Assembly (NCBI GenBank): GCA_965662895.1
Contig: CBFIJH010000005.1
Coordinates: forward strand, 1 to 64,000
Reading direction: 5' to 3'
From: Candidatus Poseidoniaceae archaeon
Lineage (GTDB): Archaea > Thermoplasmatota > Poseidoniia > Poseidoniales > Poseidoniaceae
Length of the DNA stretch: 64,000 bases
The position numbers and the translations under genes are program-made. The notes under the pieces were generated by a model that was not told the DNA's origin, made no database searches, and worked only from the letters and a program-made list of their open reading frames with translations. Positions 32,718-46,007 of the stretch are shown here, piece by piece; positions within the stretch are counted from its first letter, which is position 1; the number at the start of each line of letters is the position of its first letter.

Positions 32718-33404
32718 ATGGGACGACGTCATGAGGAAAAGGTGGACGAGGAAGAACTCGCTCGCTTGGAAAATCCTGAGGGGTCACCTGGAAAGATTCG
32801 AGTTAAACTTCCAAACAATGGAAAATCCAAGGGTGAGCTTGGCTACAAGGGCGAAATGTTTGCGCTTGCTGAAGAAATCCTTGGCGGTCGACGCGTTACT
32901 GTCCTCTGTGCGGATGGGAAGACACGAATGGCTCGAATTCCAGGAAAAATGCGACGCCGTCAATGGGTTCGCGAAGGTGATTTGATCATTGTCTGGCCCT
33001 GGGATTTTCAAGATTCAAAAGCTGACGTGAAACACCGTTACACAAAAACGCAGGCGATGTACCTCTCCCGAAAACAGGTTCTACCGGATGTTGTCGATAT
33101 GTTCGGTATGAACTCTCGAGTTGATGATGATGACACAGGCGATGATTTGTTTGGTCTTTCTGATGCACCTGAAGAGGTCATGGAAGACAACGATGTCGAC
33201 GATGTGTTTGGTTCAGACGATGATGACGATGTCGACGATATGTTTGGCTCGGATGATGATGACGATGACGTCGATGACATGTTTGGCTCAGATGACGAAC
33301 AAGAAATCGTTGAACAACCACCTGCTCCACAAGCGATGCCTGAGCCTGAGCCACTCGATGATGACGACGATGATGACGATGATATCGACGCTTTGTTCGC
33401 TTAA
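32718..33404 (+). CDS. eif1a: translation initiation factor aIF-1A with long acidic C-terminal tail
   Basis: LGGRRVTVLCADGKTRMARIPGKMRRRQWVREGDLIIVWPWDFQ. Confidence 0.95.
   Translation: MGRRHEEKVDEEELARLENPEGSPGKIRVKLPNNGKSKGELGYKGEMFALAEEILGGRRVTVLCADGKTRMARIPGKMRRRQWVREGDLIIVWPWDFQDSKADVKHRYTKTQAMYLSRKQVLPDVVDMFGMNSRVDDDDTGDDLFGLSDAPEEVMEDNDVDDVFGSDDDDDVDDMFGSDDDDDDVDDMFGSDDEQEIVEQPPAPQAMPEPEPLDDDDDDDDDIDALFA
33192..33297 (+). repeat. three tandem in-frame copies of DVDD(V/M)FGSDD
   Basis: GA(T/C)GTCGA(C/T)GA(T/C)(G/A)TGTTTGG(T/C)TC(A/G)GA repeated three times. Confidence 0.85.
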
Positions 33405-33458
33405 TTGGCAAAGGGTTGAAGTTTATCAAAAGCAAATCGAGGCTTGAGGGGCATTCAC

Positions 33459-37147: not shown

Positions 37148-39964
37148 ATGGCGAGAGGGGCATTTGCGGTAAGTTGCGTTCTTCTGATGCTGACATCTCT
37201 TGTGGTGGTACCAGCGAGTTCCTACGATAGCAACGGCGTCCAGGCTTCAGAACAGAGTCTGAGTATCCTTCCATCAAGTCCAACCGAAGGTGGGTCAGTC
37301 ACAGTTTCTTTGGCCTTGCAAAATACAAACTCTCAGCTTGCTGCAAACGTCGAGTATTCTTTTTACGCAAATGGTGTCTCAGATAATACGAAGCTCTGGG
37401 CTTCGACAGTGAACATTCCTGCAGATAATGTATCAATAGTTTCCACAACTTGGGATGGCTTACCAGTTGGAGAAAACAAAGTGTTTGTGACCTACTCATA
37501 CAACAATGGGCCTGAACACCAATTTTGGAAGTCGTTTACTGTACAAGGTCTTCCAAGTTTGCACATCGTTGAATCGACAATGACTCCTTCGTCTGGTATA
37601 CACGCCGGAGATACAATCGAACTCAACACCAAAGTTGCAAACCTTGGAAGCGTTGATGCATCCGCGTCGAATCTTGGAATCAATTATCCTGGTTCGATAA
37701 GCGACGTTGAACTCCCAACCGATGCACTTGCAGCTGGTGCTGAAGTTTGGGTCAATACAATATTTATCGCTCCATCAACCGGATCTTATGACATCATCTT
37801 GACGCCTGACGTGAACGATGTAATTCTCGAATCCTCTGAACAGGGCAAAGAATCAACCGTATCGCTCATCGTCGAGCCTCGAATGGATTTGTCACATGTG
37901 GGCGACTTGAGTATCGTGTCCACAGAAGGTTCCTTGATTGGCCCTTGGACAATCTCTGGCGTTCTTGCACGGGAATCTGGTGAAGAGACTTCCACGGTTC
38001 CCATGGTATTGGAATTTAGGGAAGGTGCATCTCTTGTTCGTCCCTTGCAAATCTTCGAAGTTGACATTTCGGGCACGGGCTACAGTACAGAGGCATGGAC
38101 CACCAGCATCACAAGCACAGACATCGCAGGATTGCCAACAGGGCAATACACGCTCGCAGCAGTTATCGATCCATACGATTCCGGAACGTTCATACAAGAA
38201 AATACAGACAACGACGAACTCATAACAACATTTTCTTTACCCGAAATACCTGATGTTTTCATCGATCCTCTTGCTTTGGCAAACCGGACGACTGTTGGCG
38301 CCGGGGATTTTGTTGATTGGTCGATGACGGCAACAAACACAGGTGACGTTGCCGTTTCTGGGACGTTTGTCTACACGTGGGAAGAACAGAGTTTTGAATC
38401 GCCATTGATTCTTCTCAATCCTGGACAGATTTACACCTACACGACTTCACATGGTACCAACAGTGGCCAACACACTGCAATTTTGGATGCGGAATGGAAA
38501 GCATCGACGGGGTCGTACGATCGTGTGCCTACAAACAGCGTTGCAACAGGCGAAGTCTTGGTTGAAGCAAATTTGCAATTGGATTGGGACAGCGACTCGA
38601 TGGTACTGCTCGATGAGGGTGGAGAAGCTGCTACATTCCCTCTCGAATCTGGTGAGAAATACACCATGACACTCGATGTTCGATCGACTCGCGGCACAGG
38701 TGATGTGACGTTCACATGCAAGAACAGTCAAACCACATGGGGGACGACGGATGTCAGCATTGAGAATCCCGGGGATCGCGCTGAAATCTCGTGCACATTC
38801 ACTGCATCAGGAAAGATGTCGATTTTACAACTTGTACCATCCGACCCAATGGTTGCGAACACATACGAGCGCTCTTTTTCCACTGCGCTCATCGAAGGCG
38901 ATGGTGCAAACGGTGGAACCTCCAACGGTACAGGAACTGCTCTTCTCATGTTTGTCGGCGCACTTGCATTGATTGGTGTACTCGTAGGAGCGATTCTTCT
39001 CACTCGTGAGAGAGAAGAAGAGGTTGAACGTGACATTTTCAATTATTGCCCTGCTTGCGATGGAGAACTTGAAGGTGATGAGAACCGTTGCCCACATTGT
39101 TCCTTCAATCTTCGAAAAGCTCGCTCGCAATTCCACGACTGTCATGAGTGTGGTGAATCCATACCCGATCTTATGGAAAATTGTGCATACTGTGGTGCTG
39201 AACAAGATGTCTCTTCCTTCTTTGAACGCAGAGAACGACGTGTTCGTGAGGTTCCGGAGGAGAAAGAGCTCGTCTCACTGCCTGAGGAAGATGAGAATGA
39301 GATTGTTACCGGTACTGAGGACTTTGCGACTGCGGTCAAAGAATTTGGCTTTGACGAATCAAATCTCGAAGATGAGTGGGATGAGAATGTTGTAGCAGCA
39401 GAAGAAGAAGTTACAGCAGCCTATGATTCACGCAATGCAGACGAAATAGCGATGGAAGACATGACTGAAGAAGAGATTGAGGCCATGCAAAACCAAATTG
39501 TTACGACCTTGAAGACGATTGAAGAGTCGTTTGAAGGGCACAATTTGGATGCGTTCTTGCCATCAAAGGAAGAGATGAAATCGCTCAAGGATGATGGTAA
39601 AGACAAAGATGGAGCTGCATGGACAACACTGTCGGCAAGTGATGCGGAAATTCGCGGTGATCTGTACGAATTAACCGGTGAAGAAGGTGTGATGCCGGGT
39701 GAGAAGGTGAATGTTGGAATGGGGATTACAGACAGTTCCCTTGCAGGAAATGAAATCAAAGAAGCCAGTGCAGACTTTGCATTTGAAGACGACACTGAGT
39801 TGCCACTTACTGTTGAAGACGGTGACAAAGCAGTCACAAAACCACGTCGTCGACCTCGCCGAAAGCGAGAACCTGAAGTTCAAACAGCGGATTGTGGCGC
39901 ATGTGGCGCTGTCATCCCCGCCGATGCCAAAGAATGCGCAACGTGCGGTGCAAAGTTCGAATGA
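37148..39964 (+). CDS. CARDB-domain surface protein, TM, cytoplasmic double Zn ribbon, acidic region and terminal Zn ribbon
   Basis: VANLGSVDA, IDPY...QENTDND; CPAC/CPHC/CHEC/CAYC; CGAC...CATC. Confidence 0.85.
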   Translation: MARGAFAVSCVLLMLTSLVVVPASSYDSNGVQASEQSLSILPSSPTEGGSVTVSLALQNTNSQLAANVEYSFYANGVSDNTKLWASTVNIPADNVSIVSTTWDGLPVGENKVFVTYSYNNGPEHQFWKSFTVQGLPSLHIVESTMTPSSGIHAGDTIELNTKVANLGSVDASASNLGINYPGSISDVELPTDALAAGAEVWVNTIFIAPSTGSYDIILTPDVNDVILESSEQGKESTVSLIVEPRMDLSHVGDLSIVSTEGSLIGPWTISGVLARESGEETSTVPMVLEFREGASLVRPLQIFEVDISGTGYSTEAWTTSITSTDIAGLPTGQYTLAAVIDPYDSGTFIQENTDNDELITTFSLPEIPDVFIDPLALANRTTVGAGDFVDWSMTATNTGDVAVSGTFVYTWEEQSFESPLILLNPGQIYTYTTSHGTNSGQHTAILDAEWKASTGSYDRVPTNSVATGEVLVEANLQLDWDSDSMVLLDEGGEAATFPLESGEKYTMTLDVRSTRGTGDVTFTCKNSQTTWGTTDVSIENPGDRAEISCTFTASGKMSILQLVPSDPMVANTYERSFSTALIEGDGANGGTSNGTGTALLMFVGALALIGVLVGAILLTREREEEVERDIFNYCPACDGELEGDENRCPHCSFNLRKARSQFHDCHECGESIPDLMENCAYCGAEQDVSSFFERRERRVREVPEEKELVSLPEEDENEIVTGTEDFATAVKEFGFDESNLEDEWDENVVAAEEEVTAAYDSRNADEIAMEDMTEEEIEAMQNQIVTTLKTIEESFEGHNLDAFLPSKEEMKSLKDDGKDKDGAAWTTLSASDAEIRGDLYELTGEEGVMPGEKVNVGMGITDSSLAGNEIKEASADFAFEDDTELPLTVEDGDKAVTKPRRRPRRKREPEVQTADCGACGAVIPADAKECATCGAKFE

Positions 39965-40104: not shown

Positions 40105-40674
40105 TTGGCTGTGTTCATGCAGCAGAGGTTATTGACGGTCTTTGTGGCCCTCTCTATGCTGCTCTTATCTGCATCGGGTTGTATTGGGTTGCTCCAAGGA
40201 AGAGAGTACATGGAGCATCTTCGCGGTGATGTTCAACAGGCTACATCGATTGAGACGACGGTTGTCGAGCATGCATTTACCAACGCTGAAATAAATGTTG
40301 AATGGAACGAGAGGTTTACGGTCGATTCCGAAGTTACAAAGATTGGCGTTTATTTCAAAACTGAGATGGCAGGCGAAATTATTCGAGAAATCTTCCCTGA
40401 TTTCTTTGACTTGCGGGAAATAAAAGTTGAGATAAAAGATCCCACTGGTGCACTGAAATACAATGCTACTCATGGAACAACAAAAACTGCCCCATACGCT
40501 TTGATTGAACCCGAGTTTGATGGGGAGTTCGTCTCCGGTGAATGGAACATCAACATCGTTGGTACCGGAGGAGGCGTCCTTACTGAGCAAGACAATTTCT
40601 TGGTCAGTGTTGATGTGACAAGAACGTGCACATTGTATCCACAAGATGACGGTCGTTGTGTTGTTGACAACTAG
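40105..40674 (+). CDS. putative lipoprotein (start probably ATG 40117)
   Basis: hydrophobic N-terminus ending ASGC lipobox-like; P/PPC-like 'VEIKDPTG...GEWNI'. Confidence 0.7.
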   Translation: MAVFMQQRLLTVFVALSMLLLSASGCIGLLQGREYMEHLRGDVQQATSIETTVVEHAFTNAEINVEWNERFTVDSEVTKIGVYFKTEMAGEIIREIFPDFFDLREIKVEIKDPTGALKYNATHGTTKTAPYALIEPEFDGEFVSGEWNINIVGTGGGVLTEQDNFLVSVDVTRTCTLYPQDDGRCVVDN

Positions 40675-41861
40675 ACCAATGATTCGCTGCAAGCGTATCG
40701 TCGACTGCAATTTCTGCACTTGCCTTCGCGTTCATGATTTCGTTTGGCACCGCCTTCGACCATCAATCGTTGTACTTCTATGATGCTTTCACGAAGATGC
40801 TGCTTTTCGTGTGTATCCCAGAAGACCTGATGGATGTCTTCTTCACCATAGCGTAAGATTCCATAGGGTGGAGATTTTTTGGTGTTGGTCTCGACAAGAG
40901 AGATGTAAGCGAGCAGTTGCAATCGATGTGAGGGATACGGTTTTTTTGGTATTTTACCAGTTTTCTGCTCAACCGGAATAAATTCACCATCAATGATGAC
41001 GATTTGATCGGGTCTCCCGCGCAGACCTGATACACGATCGATGAGAAGGTCGCTGGTTTGGTCATCATCAGAATAAACGATTTCAGCTCCACTTTCAAGT
41101 CCAACCTTTTCTCTGTTCATAGCCATCTCATTTTCCGCTTTGAGCGAATTTTGAAGTTGCCAAGTAGCAAAAAATGTCCATATAAAAGCAATGAGTATGA
41201 GAATAAAGCCAGCCTGGCTTCGATCTTGTGCTGCAGCGAGTGCAATGGCGTGGATGCCTATGACGATTGTCGATAAGAGGAGACCTGCTTCTGTTTTTCC
41301 TGCTGAAAACCATCCTCCGAGAAAACCGATAGGACTCCAAGTTGGCTCCATGCCAGTTGAAGCAAAGCGTTGTTTCATTTCTCGAATTTCTTTCAAATCA
41401 TGTTCGAAATTGAGCCAGTTTCGCCAAGGTAAAACGATTGACAGAATCGCAGCGATGAGAAACGAAACAGACCACATCGAGAGGATTTTTGCCAACTCAA
41501 TTGGGGAATTCATTACATCATCGATGTAAACAAACGCAACAGCGTCGATTGAAAAGGCGATGATAATTCCAAACCACCATGACCAAATGAGAAGTGAGCG
41601 ACGCATTCGAATTAACGCCTCTTGGAATTCATTCATATCCTTGTGAATCTCTTTGTGCTTCTCAACACCTTTTTCCACGGCTTCTCCAACTCCAGAGGTA
41701 CCTTCCTTTGCGAGTTGCCACGAGAGAGGACAGTACATGAATCGCTCCAGATCACTGGCACTTACAGAGAGCGGCGTTTCAGAATCGTCGATGTAATAGC
41801 CTTCTGGGCCGGGTTTTGCATCCGAAAAATCGGCCCCCATGTTTTCATCTCTAGCCCACAT
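40671..41861 (-). CDS. solo Cas4-like PD-(D/E)xK Fe-S nuclease with internal four-TM insertion
   Basis: SASDLERFMYCP, G...H, GRPD, VEQKTG, QLLAY, CRNCSRRYAC; four hydrophobic helices at about aa 88-237. Confidence 0.85.
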   Translation of the reverse strand: MWARDENMGADFSDAKPGPEGYYIDDSETPLSVSASDLERFMYCPLSWQLAKEGTSGVGEAVEKGVEKHKEIHKDMNEFQEALIRMRRSLLIWSWWFGIIIAFSIDAVAFVYIDDVMNSPIELAKILSMWSVSFLIAAILSIVLPWRNWLNFEHDLKEIREMKQRFASTGMEPTWSPIGFLGGWFSAGKTEAGLLLSTIVIGIHAIALAAAQDRSQAGFILILIAFIWTFFATWQLQNSLKAENEMAMNREKVGLESGAEIVYSDDDQTSDLLIDRVSGLRGRPDQIVIIDGEFIPVEQKTGKIPKKPYPSHRLQLLAYISLVETNTKKSPPYGILRYGEEDIHQVFWDTHEKQHLRESIIEVQRLMVEGGAKRNHEREGKCRNCSRRYACSESLV

Positions 41862-41962: not shown

Positions 41963-42571
41963 ATGTCTGAAGAAACGCAACTTTTGATTCCACTTGAACT
42001 CTATGAAGAATCTGGTGCGAACATTGGAACAAAGCAAAAGAGTGCAGACATGGGTCGATTCATCGATACCGTCAACTCCGATGGTCTGTACCTTCTCAAC
42101 CTCAATCAAACCGACAGCAGGATTCGAATTATTGCCTCCTTCCTGAATCAATTTGAGCCATCACAAATCATGGTAGTATCTGCTCGACAGTACGGACAGC
42201 GTCCTGCTCGAATGTTTGCTGAAGCCATCGGTGCTCTCTCTGCAGTTGGTCGTTTTATTCCCGGAAGTCTCACCAACCCAGACCTCCGCTCCTACAAAGA
42301 ACCTGACGTTCTTTTCGTCACAGACCCTGCATCAGACCAACAATCGCTTCGCGAAGCGGTCAACACAGGTCTGCCGATTGTTGGGCTTGTTGATGCAAAC
42401 AACAAGCTACGAAACGTCGATGTTGCTCTCCCTGCAAACAACAAGAGCCGACATTCTCTTGCACTCATTTATTGGCTCCTCTCGCGAGAAGTCCTCAAAC
42501 TCCGTGGAGCAACCACTGACGAAGCATGGGCAGAAGCCAACGATCTTGAGGACTGGAAGTCAACCTTCTGA
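41963..42571 (+). CDS. rps2: 30S ribosomal protein S2
   Basis: IGTKQKSADM, SARQYGQRP, GRFIPGSLTNP, PANNK. Confidence 0.97.
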   Translation: MSEETQLLIPLELYEESGANIGTKQKSADMGRFIDTVNSDGLYLLNLNQTDSRIRIIASFLNQFEPSQIMVVSARQYGQRPARMFAEAIGALSAVGRFIPGSLTNPDLRSYKEPDVLFVTDPASDQQSLREAVNTGLPIVGLVDANNKLRNVDVALPANNKSRHSLALIYWLLSREVLKLRGATTDEAWAEANDLEDWKSTF

Positions 42572-43594
42572 GATTGGCTTCAGGAAGTCAGAAATCGCTT
42601 GCGCAGATTCGTTAACATCTGAAAGTTCGTGCATCAGTGTTCGAACGGATTTTGCTCCGGGTAGACCTTTTGAAAATGCAATCGCATGACGTTGCATTGT
42701 TTGTTTTGCAAGTCCTGTTGTTTCTCGACAGAGTGCAACATAGCGATCCCAACACCATCGACGTGAAGCAAATGCTCTTGAGGTCTCTGACATTGTTTCC
42801 CACGAATCTTGATGCTGTTTCACCCAGGGCAATTCCTCTTCTTCCAACCATCCAAGACCTACCTTGATTCGTGCAAAAATATCGGGGCGTCCAATTGCCG
42901 CTCGGCCAATCATGAGTCCTGAAGCGTTGGTAGCCTCCAAGCATCGTCGTGCACTCTCTGCATTGGTGATGTCTCCATTTGCAACGACTGGAACGTCCAC
43001 CGATTGAACAGCTGTTTCAATCGTCTTCCAGTCAGCAATTCCGGAATATCGTTGCCTGAGTGTCCGACCATGGATGCACAAGCGTTGAGCACCTACCTTC
43101 TCGAGCGATTGACAGATATGAACCGCATTGTTTGGGCCTTGGCCGGTACCAAGTCGCATTTTTGCAGTGACGGGAACATCAACAGCATCAACAATATTTT
43201 CAACCATTGAAACGAGTTTTTGAGGCTCTCCCATCAATGCTGCACCAGCGCAAATATTGGTAACCTTTGGAGCAGGGCACCCAAAATTCAAATCGATGAC
43301 ATCTGCAGAATCTTGAAGCATTGTCGCCGCTTTGACCATATCACTGATTTCGCCTCCAAAGATTTGAGGAATGAACGGTTGTTCCCTTGGATCTGATTCC
43401 ATTTTTCTCCATGAGGTTGTTGCTTCCCGGCTCAATGCTGTACTGTTCGTAAATTCTGTAATCGTTATGTCCGCGCCACATTCCTTTGCTAACAGACGAT
43501 AAGGAAGGTCTGAGACTCCTGCCATTGGAGCGAGATAGAGTGGTCTCTGCTCACCAGACCAGGGCTCATAGGTCTCGAAACCGACGCCACTCAT
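42560..43594 (-). CDS. dus: tRNA-dihydrouridine synthase
   Basis: LAPMAGVSD, DLNFGCP, AKMRLG, IHGRT, VANGDI, MIGRAA. Confidence 0.95.
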   Translation of the reverse strand: MSGVGFETYEPWSGEQRPLYLAPMAGVSDLPYRLLAKECGADITITEFTNSTALSREATTSWRKMESDPREQPFIPQIFGGEISDMVKAATMLQDSADVIDLNFGCPAPKVTNICAGAALMGEPQKLVSMVENIVDAVDVPVTAKMRLGTGQGPNNAVHICQSLEKVGAQRLCIHGRTLRQRYSGIADWKTIETAVQSVDVPVVANGDITNAESARRCLEATNASGLMIGRAAIGRPDIFARIKVGLGWLEEEELPWVKQHQDSWETMSETSRAFASRRWCWDRYVALCRETTGLAKQTMQRHAIAFSKGLPGAKSVRTLMHELSDVNESAQAISDFLKPISEG

Positions 43595-44706
43595 CGTTCA
43601 TCGCCCGTTGTCAAGACCTCTTCAATCATCGTGCCGACTCGTCGTATTCTTCGTAACAAACGGTCGAGGCGAGCCATCATGTTCTGTTTGGAATCTGAGA
43701 TTGTGTTCCCAACCAGACGGTATCCGAGAGGCAAGCGACCTCCGAGTAGGTTGAGCAACAACATTTGATCTGCAGCATTGATGCCCACCATCGCCCGTTG
43801 AACGTCTTCGATGGTGAGTTTTCCCTTGTTCAAAGGCCTCAGCAAAGCGTTGTGATTTTCCTCAGGAATCAGACGCATGAAACCTCCTTTCTTCAAGAGC
43901 CAATCCTCTCCTCGCCGTTGATGCTGAGTCATCATTGCGGACCAAAGGGCAGAAGCGAGCCGGTCGGTTCGAGGAATTCGTTCAACAAGCCCACATGCTC
44001 GGAATCGCTCAAGAATGCGTCCAAGTCGAGCCTTTTGCCCTCCAAACTTCTCATGAGCATCGTCCAATGAGATGGGTGAATCAGTGTTGAGAAGAAGGCC
44101 GAACAGTTGTTCTGAGACAGAACCTGCAAGGATTTCATGACCTGGGCGGTCTCCAAGCAATCCAAAATCAGCCATCCACTGGGTTACGTCGGAAGCACCC
44201 TCCGTTGCGGGACGATAATCAATAATGTTGAGATTGAGGGGAAGTTGCGATTCTTCAGCAAGTTCATTTTCGAGTGTGATTCCCTCACGGTTCCAATTCG
44301 ATTGAAGAAGATCCATCTTGTGTTCGAGAATCAAACGATACTGAGCAAAGCACAATTCCAGTGCTTGCGTTAATCCTCCACCCCTGAGAATGTACGTTCG
44401 CCAACCTTTCCCTTCATTGGTATAGGAGAGCAAACCAGATTGGCTCAACCGAGAAAGGTGATGATTCAATGCAGCAGGCGTCATCGCAAGTTCGTCCGAC
44501 AACGCCTGTGCATCCCATGAAGATTGAGGATGCAAAAAGAAATGGTCTCGTAACATACGGTGTATAGGTGATGCAAAACCGTAATCCGCAGTAGCATCAC
44601 CTTTTCGACGGACAAAACAAAACGACTCCACAAACCAACCAATCAATCGATCGATTGAACGGTCTGTGGTCGGCATTGGAAGTTCTTCCAACTTGACATT
44701 AAGCAT
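43591..44706 (-). CDS. transcriptional regulator with two tandem winged-helix units
   Basis: AQALSDELAMTPAALNHHLSRLSQSGLL and SLDDAHEK...LGRILERFRACGLVER; ATG 44706 lies 24 nt after TTCAAA. Confidence 0.75.
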   Translation of the reverse strand: MLNVKLEELPMPTTDRSIDRLIGWFVESFCFVRRKGDATADYGFASPIHRMLRDHFFLHPQSSWDAQALSDELAMTPAALNHHLSRLSQSGLLSYTNEGKGWRTYILRGGGLTQALELCFAQYRLILEHKMDLLQSNWNREGITLENELAEESQLPLNLNIIDYRPATEGASDVTQWMADFGLLGDRPGHEILAGSVSEQLFGLLLNTDSPISLDDAHEKFGGQKARLGRILERFRACGLVERIPRTDRLASALWSAMMTQHQRRGEDWLLKKGGFMRLIPEENHNALLRPLNKGKLTIEDVQRAMVGINAADQMLLLNLLGGRLPLGYRLVGNTISDSKQNMMARLDRLLRRIRRVGTMIEEVLTTGDER

Positions 44707-44770
44707 ACTCTTGTACAATCGGCGATGGTCTTTGAATCCTGTGCAACAATTGCTTTACAGAAAGGGAAAG

Positions 44771-45439
44771 TTATGCCTGAGCCCGACGCCCATCACTCCA
44801 ATGATAGGTCAAACGTTCCGATCTTCGGAAGGTGTCGATTTGGATGTGCGAGGCAAGATTGAGTACGTCCTGCCGTAAAATCCCTCGTCGTCGCAGAACC
44901 TTGACCGCTGAATGAACGGTTGCCCGTGTTCGTCCAATTCGTCGTGCAAGTTGTGCTTGTGACCGAGGAATCCCTCCTTCGAGAATATCATCGATGACTT
45001 GCCTTTGAACTGTTGAGAGGCCAATCGGAAGACTTGATGCCATACGTTCTTGGTCGGTTGAAGCTGATTGAAGGATTTCAACCTGAGCCGGTCCACCAGC
45101 GAAGTAACAGGTTCGTCCATTGACAGGCATAACAGTGATTTTTCCACTGCTTTGCATGACATCCAAATGGTGGCGAAGTGTTCCATTCGCAGCACTCAAT
45201 TCGTGTTGAAGTTCTCTGTAACACAGGCCTGGATGGCGCTCAAGCGTTCGTAAGACTCTCGTTCGGAATGGATGTTCGCTTGATTGTCGTTTGGTCGAAA
45301 TACCACCAAAAGCGAAAGCCGTTGCAGCAGATGCCATGGCCGCTAGAGCTTGTGCAATTCCAGCAAGACCGCCTGCTGCACCAGCGATTCCTGCCGCCAG
45401 CCAAGGGCGTTCACGAACCCACTGCGTGAGAAGTGCCAT
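44771..45439 (-). CDS. double winged-helix DNA-binding protein with hydrophobic N-terminus
   Basis: HPGLCYRELQHELSAANGTLRHHL and SQAQLARRIGRTRATVHSAVKVL. Confidence 0.8.
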   Translation of the reverse strand: MALLTQWVRERPWLAAGIAGAAGGLAGIAQALAAMASAATAFAFGGISTKRQSSEHPFRTRVLRTLERHPGLCYRELQHELSAANGTLRHHLDVMQSSGKITVMPVNGRTCYFAGGPAQVEILQSASTDQERMASSLPIGLSTVQRQVIDDILEGGIPRSQAQLARRIGRTRATVHSAVKVLRRRGILRQDVLNLASHIQIDTFRRSERLTYHWSDGRRAQA

Positions 45440-45486
45440 ACATCGAACATGACCTCTTGGTATCTTAATGCATCGCATTGATGTAT

Positions 45487-45942
45487 CTAAGCGCCAACGA
45501 TGGAGCCTTGATGAATTTTCATGAACGCAACCAAAGGAGAGAGAAGTCTCCCACAGGTCATACCATGATTCGATAATCGATAGGTTACACGAACAGGAGG
45601 GCCATCGTTGACAATCCTTTCAACAAGTCCTTTCTCGGCAAGATAGCGGAGTTTATCGGACAGTGTTCGTGAAGATATACCTTTGAGAAGGTGCTTCATT
45701 TCATTAAATCGGCGATCGCCTGCAATGTAGAGCGTTGATAGGATTTCAATCGTCCATCGTGAACCAAAGACGTTGAGTGCTTCAACGGCAGCATCGACTT
45801 CCCAATTGAGGTTGAATTGACCTTGGCCGGAGTGGTCTTCGAGCAAGGAACGAATGGAACCTCCATTTTGGATTGTTTCACTGATCTTGTCACTCACAAT
45901 CTTGAGTTCAGTTGCAGGAAGCACCATCGGAGGTTCTGGCAT
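45487..45942 (-). CDS. HxlR-family transcriptional regulator
   Basis: GSRWTIEIL, RRFNEM...GISSRTLSDKL, PPVRVTYRLS. Confidence 0.92.
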   Translation of the reverse strand: MPEPPMVLPATELKIVSDKISETIQNGGSIRSLLEDHSGQGQFNLNWEVDAAVEALNVFGSRWTIEILSTLYIAGDRRFNEMKHLLKGISSRTLSDKLRYLAEKGLVERIVNDGPPVRVTYRLSNHGMTCGRLLSPLVAFMKIHQGSIVGA

Positions 45943-46007
45943 GATAACCCGATTCCTTTCCAATACTTGATTTCTTTTCAACACCAAAGGGAACAACGAG
46001 TGAAAAC

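Follow-up and report, generated by a model that had tools for sequence, protein, structure and literature searches.

A predicted membrane-embedded, stand-alone Cas4-type nuclease in Poseidoniales and other Thermoplasmatota archaea

The window analysed here is a stretch of 64,000 nucleotides from a Candidatus Poseidoniaceae archaeon (NCBI GenBank assembly GCA_965662895.1, contig CBFIJH010000005.1, positions 1 to 64,000), and its reverse strand carries a gene for an unusual member of the Cas4 family. Cas4-family enzymes are known as soluble nucleases of CRISPR (clusters of regularly interspaced short palindromic repeats) adaptation, repair or viruses, and what stand-alone Cas4 does has yet to be settled in the field. 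Motifs, family matches and a structural model show that the gene encodes what is predicted to be one Cas4/Dna2-type iron-sulfur (Fe-S) PD-(D/E)XK nuclease domain, made of residues 30-88 and 241-396 together; about 150 residues with four predicted membrane helices are inserted between its N-terminal piece and its catalytic core. This would be a stand-alone Cas4 built into the membrane, a near-universal single-copy gene in abundant marine archaea without CRISPR. The explanation we favour, at somewhat less than an even chance, is a CRISPR-independent, membrane-tethered and cytoplasm-facing DNA-end nuclease that would act on DNA arriving at the membrane, a role we infer from its architecture. The parts of the gene are as follows.

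40671..41861 (-): complete gene of 396 codons followed by a stop at 40671-40673, from the open reading frame (ORF) list and translation
41598..41774 (-): N-terminal Cas4 piece, residues 30-88, with SASDLER-x2-YCP (C44 = putative first Fe-S ligand) and the G65...H69 helix; from the alignment, with a predicted local distance difference test score (pLDDT) of ~90 or higher
41730..41732 (-): codon of Cys44, the lone N-terminal cysteine, invariant in the alignment
41142..41597 (-): predicted membrane insert, residues 89-240, two helical hairpins plus a 45-residue linking cytoplasmic loop; hydropathy and AlphaFold2
41523..41579 (-): predicted transmembrane (TM) helix 1, residues 95-113; Kyte-Doolittle 19-residue window >1.6, within the continuous AlphaFold2 helix 60-116
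41430..41486 (-): predicted TM helix 2, residues 126-144; Kyte-Doolittle peak 2.41, AlphaFold2 helix 120-143
41232..41288 (-): predicted TM helix 3, residues 192-210; Kyte-Doolittle peak 2.15, AlphaFold2 helix 188-210
41154..41210 (-): predicted TM helix 4, residues 218-236; Kyte-Doolittle peak 1.95, within AlphaFold2 helix 214-253, which continues to the nuclease core
40674..41141 (-): stalk, PD-(D/E)XK nuclease core and predicted Fe-S C-terminus, residues 241-396; Pfam PF12705 and PF01930, PADLOC Cas4 models, Foldseek
40962..41009 (-): putative catalytic motifs D285 ... E298-Q-K300 (RPD, ExK); conservation, aligned to the IPVEiKtG motif of solved Cas4 structures
40905..40919 (-): Q315-x3-Y319 motif; conservation
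40689..40718 (-): C382-x2-C385-x5-C391, three putative C-terminal Fe-S ligands; conservation

An important first step is to establish the family of the protein. The original prediction had described an ORF with intact Cas4-type elements, and all the motifs it named can be located. Y43-C44-P45, G65 and H69 lie before the insert, while R283-P284-D285, E298-Q-K300, Q315..Y319 and C382-x2-C385-x5-C391 follow it; the 396-residue protein has four cysteines in all (C44, C382, C385 and C391). Two Pfam families match residues 245-391, PDDEXK_1 (PF12705; 41.3 bits against a cut-off of 22, 2.2e-10) and Cas_Cas4 (PF01930; 37.3 bits against a cut-off of 22.7, 3.6e-9), and no helicase or helicase-like domain was seen, the Pfam matches being limited to these two. 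The Cas4 models of PADLOC match the product at up to 2.4e-17, and the nuclease-domain models of DruK are its only other PADLOC match. No longer fused relatives (>693 residues) were found, which is weak evidence.

Conservation was scored in an alignment of 51 rows, of which 26 come from the order to which the window belongs and the other 25 are four-helix forms from outside it. Invariant columns include Y43, C44, G65, G282, P284, P296, K300, P305, S311, H312, Q315 and Y338 as well as R374, H376, C382, C385, R387 and C391, with H69, D285, E298 and Y319 conserved in at least 90% of rows. The motif C382-x2-C385-x5-C391 is invariant too in 54 rows of two-, four- and eight-helix relatives. When the family profile is compared with the type I-C Cas4 (8d3l), the match falls into two pieces, profile positions 8-71 corresponding to residues 3-67 (the Cys and the G..H helix) and positions 240-341 to Cas4 residues 102-202. 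For SSO0001, PMC13621843 gives the metal site as His62, Asp99, Asp113 and Lys115; by motif order, H69, D285, E298 and K300 are the putative counterparts of these residues, so that the active site and the Fe-S site would each take residues from both sides of the insert. Conserved motifs of this kind suggest a metal-dependent DNA nuclease in which cleavage would depend on D285, E298 and K300.

The structural model points the same way. AlphaFold2, run on the 51-row alignment, gave a mean pLDDT of 85.5 and a predicted template modelling score (pTM) of 0.76, and it places helices at 60-116, 120-143, 188-210 and 214-253 ahead of a beta/alpha core. The H69 helix and TM helix 1 are modelled as one rod, and TM helix 4 runs as one rod into the core. 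Confidence is low in the loop at ~150-190 (block-mean pLDDT ~46-60), dropping below 50 only at residues 170-186. A Foldseek search of the PDB returned Dna2 (5eax), SSO0001 (4ic1), Cas4-Cas1-Cas2 (8d3l, 7mi5), ACE1, MGME1, AdnAB and Exo5 at a probability of ~1.00. For the Cas4 fold itself, the probability was 1.00 to 4ic1, 8d3l, 7mi5 and 4r5q, and chain 8d3l_I superposes with a root mean square deviation of 3.6 over 139 columns.

Membrane helices were predicted with a Kyte-Doolittle hydropathy script together with the AlphaFold2 secondary structure. Four hydrophobic 19-residue windows, with means of 1.9-2.4, lie at ~95-113, 126-144, 192-210 and 218-236 and coincide with long modelled helices, in agreement with the insert that had been proposed. 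The same proposal held that an even number of helices keeps both halves of the Fe-S 'staple' on one side of the membrane, and this is supported by counts of 2, 4 or 8 helices in 66/71 full-length representatives and by the distribution of charge. In four-helix rows, the mean number of lysines plus arginines is 3.6 in the N-flank, 1.0 in loop 1-2, 4.6 in loop 2-3, 1.0 in loop 3-4 and 3.0 in the C-flank. According to the positive-inside rule for an N-in/C-in protein, the inside sum exceeds the outside sum in 45/45 scorable rows; this count omits 6/51 rows in which fewer than four helices were predicted. Since the charges are biased in this way, the helices are even in number and a [4Fe-4S] cluster has to be put together, we infer that both nuclease pieces are cytoplasmic and fold into one domain. 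The outer loops average only 10 and 7 residues, so no extracellular domain is to be expected.

The sequence of the insert can vary widely. In the two hairpin regions 0/106 scored columns are at least 90% conserved, as against 11/59 and 27/138 in the two nuclease pieces. When the window protein is compared with four-helix rows from outside Poseidoniales, the hairpins share 13-16% identity and the nuclease pieces 33-40%. The membrane part therefore looks like a simple anchor, to judge by its sequence; the even helix count, the free sequence and the variable number of hairpins all suggest an anchor rather than a channel.

Database searches can reveal how widely this design is distributed. In a large protein collection, searched within a limited band of lengths, 1093 relatives reach E <= 0.001, and the 120 best of them are 81-99% identical and 389-408 residues long. 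Named relatives come from metagenome-assembled genomes (MAGs) labelled Poseidoniaceae, Thalassarchaeaceae or Thermoplasmatota and are titled 'CRISPR-associated protein Cas4' or 'Dna2/Cas4 domain-containing protein'. Within the window's order a match was found in 99/151 genomes, nearly all with a single full-length copy (f1 74/74, f2 2/2, f3 22/74), and these full-length orthologues range from 99% to 41% identity across the order. The insert is thus kept by orthologues, as the original prediction needed it to be, and a chimeric assembly can be rejected. With the protein as query, the gene was not found in 52/151 genomes, which belong to seven genera with small genomes of ~1.2-1.6 Mb; the family profile gave no match either in resampled members of five of these seven genera. 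The order of about a dozen genes around the locus is identical in 21/21 loci, these being the window and 20 other genomes of the order.

To look beyond the order, 1.84 billion representatives were searched exhaustively, which gave 887 matches at E <= 0.001. Helices were counted in the query and the best 150 of these matches, with three landmarks required of each protein (the N-terminal Cys, GxPD..ExK and CX2CX5C); 80/151 were fragments or lacked landmarks and went uncounted. Among the 71 full-length representatives, the insert has two helices in 20, four in 33 and eight in 13, the other five having 0, 0, 1, 6 and 7, which are probably prediction or parsing errors. Named members include a protein of the cultured archaeon Aciduliprofundum boonei (323 residues, ADD08116.1), eight-helix proteins of Thermoplasmata MAGs (499-596 residues) and two-helix proteins of 280 residues from 'Poseidoniia archaeon' MAGs. 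When each species is represented by one genome, relatives are encoded in at least 554 stretches; the titles of the best 80 name Thermoplasmatota lineages in 67 cases, the catch-all labels Methanobacteriota/Euryarchaeota archaeon in 11, Aenigmatarchaeota in one and 'archaeon' in one. A match is present in 179/251 sampled genomes of the phylum, a count that includes ordinary soluble Cas4 of ~180-210 residues. Taken together, the design is shown to be inherited vertically in the order and to occur with one, two or four hairpins across Thermoplasmatota. A feature search of the ESM Atlas with the window protein (P0001) returned its own Cas4-named clusters and a 356-residue bacterial cluster (324 members, most commonly Planctomycetota; score 0.93). 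In the viral contigs of IMG/VR, 40 pattern matches included 0 confirmed relatives.

A tree of the nuclease core was built by a quick method from 106 rows and 135 columns, and most of its forks are unresolved. The window's clade has a support of 100. Four- and eight-helix forms fall on one side of a branch with a value of 93 in the Shimodaira-Hasegawa-like approximate likelihood ratio test (SH-aLRT), and the far side holds short soluble proteins together with many two-helix forms. About 20 short soluble proteins were miscounted as '1TM' in the helix labels of this tree, and its per-group counts were left unused. Local alignments between hairpins give z-scores against shuffles of up to 10 in 3/4 eight-helix proteins (P0139, P0142 and P0153), which suggests that the eight-helix forms may have grown by tandem duplication of a two-helix unit. 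The fourth, P0176, shows little resemblance between its hairpins, and the two hairpins of the window protein are unlike each other (z 0.5). Three further eight-helix relatives (L116, L117 and L118, with 601, 581 and 645 residues) begin directly with membrane helices; as called, their ORFs lack the N-terminal Cys motif and have ~100 extra C-terminal residues, so either the start was miscalled or the piece is truly lost.

These observations bear on a nuclease-gated membrane effector, which had been among the roles first proposed. Here DNA binding would be relayed to the hairpins and lead to oligomerisation and depolarisation (abortive infection) or, alternatively, membrane stress would activate the nuclease. 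Coupling between nuclease and membrane is geometrically possible, since H69 sits on an unbroken modelled helix with TM helix 1 (60-116) and TM helix 4 is continuous with the core (214-253), and the growth of hairpin number by duplication can also be read in its favour. However, the membrane part has no conserved residue, which speaks for a simple anchor rather than for a pore or effector. The number of hairpins differs among close relatives on the tree, and this is a core gene outside any defence island. We consider an effector very unlikely.

The surroundings of the gene can be used to assess its relation to CRISPR. Neighbourhoods were clustered in the 21 loci of the order, in 59 of 80 loci from other Thermoplasmata (those of at least 9 kb) and in a separate set of 20 loci of two- and eight-helix forms. 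As first noted, neither Cas1 nor a CRISPR array accompanies the gene: the 1.86-Mb assembly, which is 92% complete, gave no match to Cas1 (PF01867), and neither there nor in the window was a CRISPR-like array of at least four repeats found. None of the 21 + 59 + 20 neighbourhoods showed a cas gene. An ordinary adaptation Cas4, trimming prespacers for Cas1-Cas2, would account for the closeness of sequence and fold to CRISPR-associated Cas4 and for the title 'CRISPR-associated protein Cas4' that source databases give to orthologues. It is nevertheless contradicted by the missing Cas1 and arrays, and by the missing cas neighbours; solved Cas4 structures also lack the membrane insert. This explanation can be given next to no credence, and the automatic 'CRISPR-associated Cas4' labels in these genomes are no sign of CRISPR immunity.

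Within the window, the neighbours are a lipoprotein-like gene, a CARDB/zinc-ribbon membrane protein, rps2, dihydrouridine synthase (Dus) and three winged-helix regulators. The gene is divergent from rps2 (41963..42571, +), just as the original prediction had it. The lipoprotein-like gene (40105-40674, +; 189 residues) has a lipobox-like SGC after a hydrophobic start and matches neither a Pfam nor a PADLOC family; it runs convergently to the Cas4-like gene, whose stop it overlaps by 4 bases, and is kept in 19/21 loci. The membrane protein (37148-39964, +; 938 residues), kept in 20/21 loci, combines a signal peptide, CARDB/DUF7507 outer domains and one membrane helix with a long, acidic, cytoplasmic tail that bears several zinc ribbons (DZR, Zn_ribbon). 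None of three flanking proteins (189, 938 and 610 residues) matches a PADLOC family (PADLOC-DB 2.0). The three winged-helix regulators are consecutive (43591-45996, -; 375, 235 and 169 residues; MarR/HTH_24/HxlR-type), and their order is kept in 19/21 loci. Further away, four 36-nucleotide direct repeats (33183-33407; 67-100% identical) lie at the 3' end of ORF 32718-33404 and encode an acidic, D/E-rich repeated peptide. As for expression, a 221-nucleotide contig from one marine metatranscriptome library matches 41188-41405 without difference, which is only a hint because DNA carry-over is possible.

In the 59 Thermoplasmata loci, the recurrent neighbours are a two-helix coiled-coil protein (32), a small lipoprotein (30) and a secreted LTD + PLD + PKD protein (20), along with IF-2B-like, AcnX, TIM, Kae1 and aminotransferase genes; in 5/20 loci of the two- and eight-helix forms, the gene for ribosomal protein L15e is adjacent. 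The coiled-coil protein, of ~105 residues, has two membrane helices and a C-terminal coiled coil, with weak SieB/MscL-like matches below cut-offs. Its gene lies directly downstream and is followed by that of a ~155-residue lipoprotein, both convergent with the Cas4-like gene (L049-L110; for instance L063:8987-9301 and L072:9289-9759). A profile-profile comparison of the lipoprotein families of the two lineages matched the signal peptide only (probability 26%), so no phylum-wide partner is shown. The secreted LTD + PLD protein is the sole DNA-related neighbour; its best-matching models are those of the DrmC/NucT nucleases, at scores under the cut-offs, and its gene lies within three genes of the membrane Cas4 in 20/59 loci, in two different arrangements. 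In the window's genome the homologue is a larger secreted protein of 1629 residues with five Lamin-tail and two PLD-like domains (L143 2033-6922, +, which is G000:C4:80032-84921). The presence of the LTD-PLD protein beside the membrane Cas4 in those 20 loci offers a weak link to DNA from outside.

How such an enzyme might work can be outlined as follows. The Cas4-type domain would sit directly under the membrane, carried on two continuous helices (the H69 helix with TM helix 1, and TM helix 4 with the core), and, like Cas4, Dna2 and AddB, would use metal to cut at DNA ends, here without CRISPR. The enzyme would thereby be confined to the inner membrane face and held away from the nucleoid, and linear DNA reaching or crossing the membrane, whether viral or environmental, may be trimmed or destroyed there. 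Tethering an end-nuclease fits a substrate at the membrane or a need to stay off the nucleoid, and both point to incoming DNA. DNA entering the cell is accordingly the substrate we favour, again with a confidence that falls short of even, and both DNA uptake and degradation of incoming DNA, as first suggested, are possible roles.

Several points weigh against this explanation. The pattern of a phylum-wide, vertical, single-copy gene in a housekeeping context is unlike that of most defence genes, and an endogenous role fits it equally well. The gene is dispensable, with no match in 52/151 genomes of the order, all of them from small-genome genera. Across the 21 + 59 + 20 loci, its conserved neighbours include no gene for a channel, pilus, translocase or competence. 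In the genome of the window, the LTD-PLD homologue is found on a different contig, and it is kept in genera without a detected membrane Cas4 (g12 8/10, g14 12/12, g15 7/7); as a partner it was rejected on both counts. The match to NCBIfam TIGR00372 cas4 (54.1 bits, 1.7e-14) is under the equivalog cut-off of 65, and nuclease activity, the Fe-S cluster and membrane insertion are all predictions from sequence. An undescribed system, or a candidate for defence, had also been proposed. Neither is supported, given vertical inheritance in single copy, fully conserved housekeeping synteny, and the absence of a phylum-wide conserved partner, of PADLOC families among the three flanking proteins and of viral relatives.

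Alternatively, the same enzyme in the same topology may act on the cell's own DNA. As a housekeeping nuclease it would process chromosomal ends and flaps, or DNA caught at the membrane or where the cell divides, while a chromosome attached to the membrane is repaired, replicated or segregated. Since its behaviour is that of a housekeeping gene, we hold this role to be nearly as likely as one in incoming DNA, though doubtful in its own right. It is a core, single-copy gene with vertical inheritance, its nuclease parts evolve slowly, it keeps synteny with rps2, Dus and the regulators, and elsewhere it adjoins the L15e, IF-2B-like, AcnX, TIM and Kae1 genes. A further point for an endogenous role is that no NurA was detected in the genome, which is 92% complete. 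On the other hand, the genome has several other PDDEXK_1 genes, the gene under study is lost from all sampled small-genome genera, and the two to eight membrane helices of a repair nuclease are left unexplained. One of these other genes encodes a soluble Cas4/RecB-like nuclease of 384 residues (L134, G000:C2:205970-209767, ORF 1480-2634, +) with a full-length PDDEXK_1 match (3.7e-21); it has a Cys motif near its N-terminus and clustered Cys residues near its C-terminus, and it adjoins a 280-residue ORF. Further PDDEXK_1 matches fall in long open frames of 1231 and 1659 residues (G000:C6:87082-93122) and in frames of 597 and 614 residues side by side (G000:C8:50142-53048), which may be helicase-nuclease pairs. 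These other RecB-family genes could conceivably serve ordinary end resection. Neither they nor the missing NurA decides between the two leading roles.

The ribosomal-protein and tRNA-modification neighbours can also be taken to suggest a membrane-anchored nuclease for RNA or RNA-DNA hybrids that would organise RNA decay at the membrane, as RNase Y and RNase E do in bacteria, and some relatives of the nuclease fold cut RNA-DNA flaps. Yet all matched families and structures are DNA nucleases, and the neighbours are not co-oriented, rps2 being divergent; such a role is most improbable. To return to incoming DNA, the hairpin insert may be more than an anchor. With the H69 helix continuous with TM helix 1 and the core with TM helix 4, the Cas4 DNA-tunnel arch would close through the membrane. 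One could imagine a phylum-wide 'entry-point' nuclease that threads and cuts DNA as it emerges on the inner side of the membrane, with the state of the membrane gating its activity, and that is possibly an ancestor-like, single-protein counterpart of membrane-coupled defence or uptake machines. We regard this as an unlikely extension.

Membrane Cas4 with two, four or eight helices across Thermoplasmatota provides a concrete, testable case of DNA processing at the archaeal membrane, and in Aciduliprofundum boonei a cultured carrier is available for biochemistry. Among known systems, Zorya is a membrane-based anti-phage machine that shares the concept of acting at the membrane on invading DNA. 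The same concept is found in Kiwa. Both consist of several genes, have dedicated membrane sensors and are patchily distributed, whereas here a single core gene stands without a partner. The iron-staple nucleases Dna2, AddB/AdnAB, Exo5 and MGME1 resemble the window protein in joining a PD-(D/E)XK core to an Fe-S or arch element (5eax, 6ppr, 7lw7 and 8xa9 are top Foldseek matches). Unlike them, the window protein is without a helicase domain, much smaller and predicted to be membrane-embedded.

Stand-alone Cas4 homologues have been treated as a class by Hudaiberdiev et al. 2017 (PMC5704561), in whose main text 'transmembrane' occurs 0 times and 'membrane' once, in an unrelated gene name; its supplementary tables might list the clade. 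In the single biochemical study on a solo-Cas4 from an archaeon, Rentz et al. 2025 (PMC12501428) describe the Methanosarcina mazei protein as having a [4Fe-4S] cluster and as cutting DNA in a Mn/Mg-dependent manner. This protein is, like the window protein, an archaeal Cas4-family protein outside CRISPR loci. In contrast, it is there described as a soluble high-order oligomer, and the two are likened by description, not by sequence; neither 'membrane' nor 'transmembrane' occurs in the text of that report. The Cas4 passages of PMC4158269 and bioRxiv 10.1101/270033, so far as these sources were available, concern no such membrane protein. No published description of a membrane-embedded Cas4 architecture was found in the literature search, and databases label these proteins simply Cas4. 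By sequence and structure matches, CRISPR-associated Cas4 (SSO0001, 4ic1; Pcal_0546, 4r5q; type I-C, 8d3l) is closest, with the same fold and a shared motif set of N-terminal Cys, His helix, D, ExK, QxxxY and CX2CX5C. The window protein differs in being without cas1, cas2 or a CRISPR array and in scoring below the TIGR00372 equivalog cut-off. It also has the family-specific conserved residues R374-N-H376 and S311-H312, and carries ~150 residues with four predicted membrane helices inside the domain, an insert missing from the solved structures. Those relatives are single soluble domains of 190-218 residues, whereas the window protein, with its insert, reaches 396.

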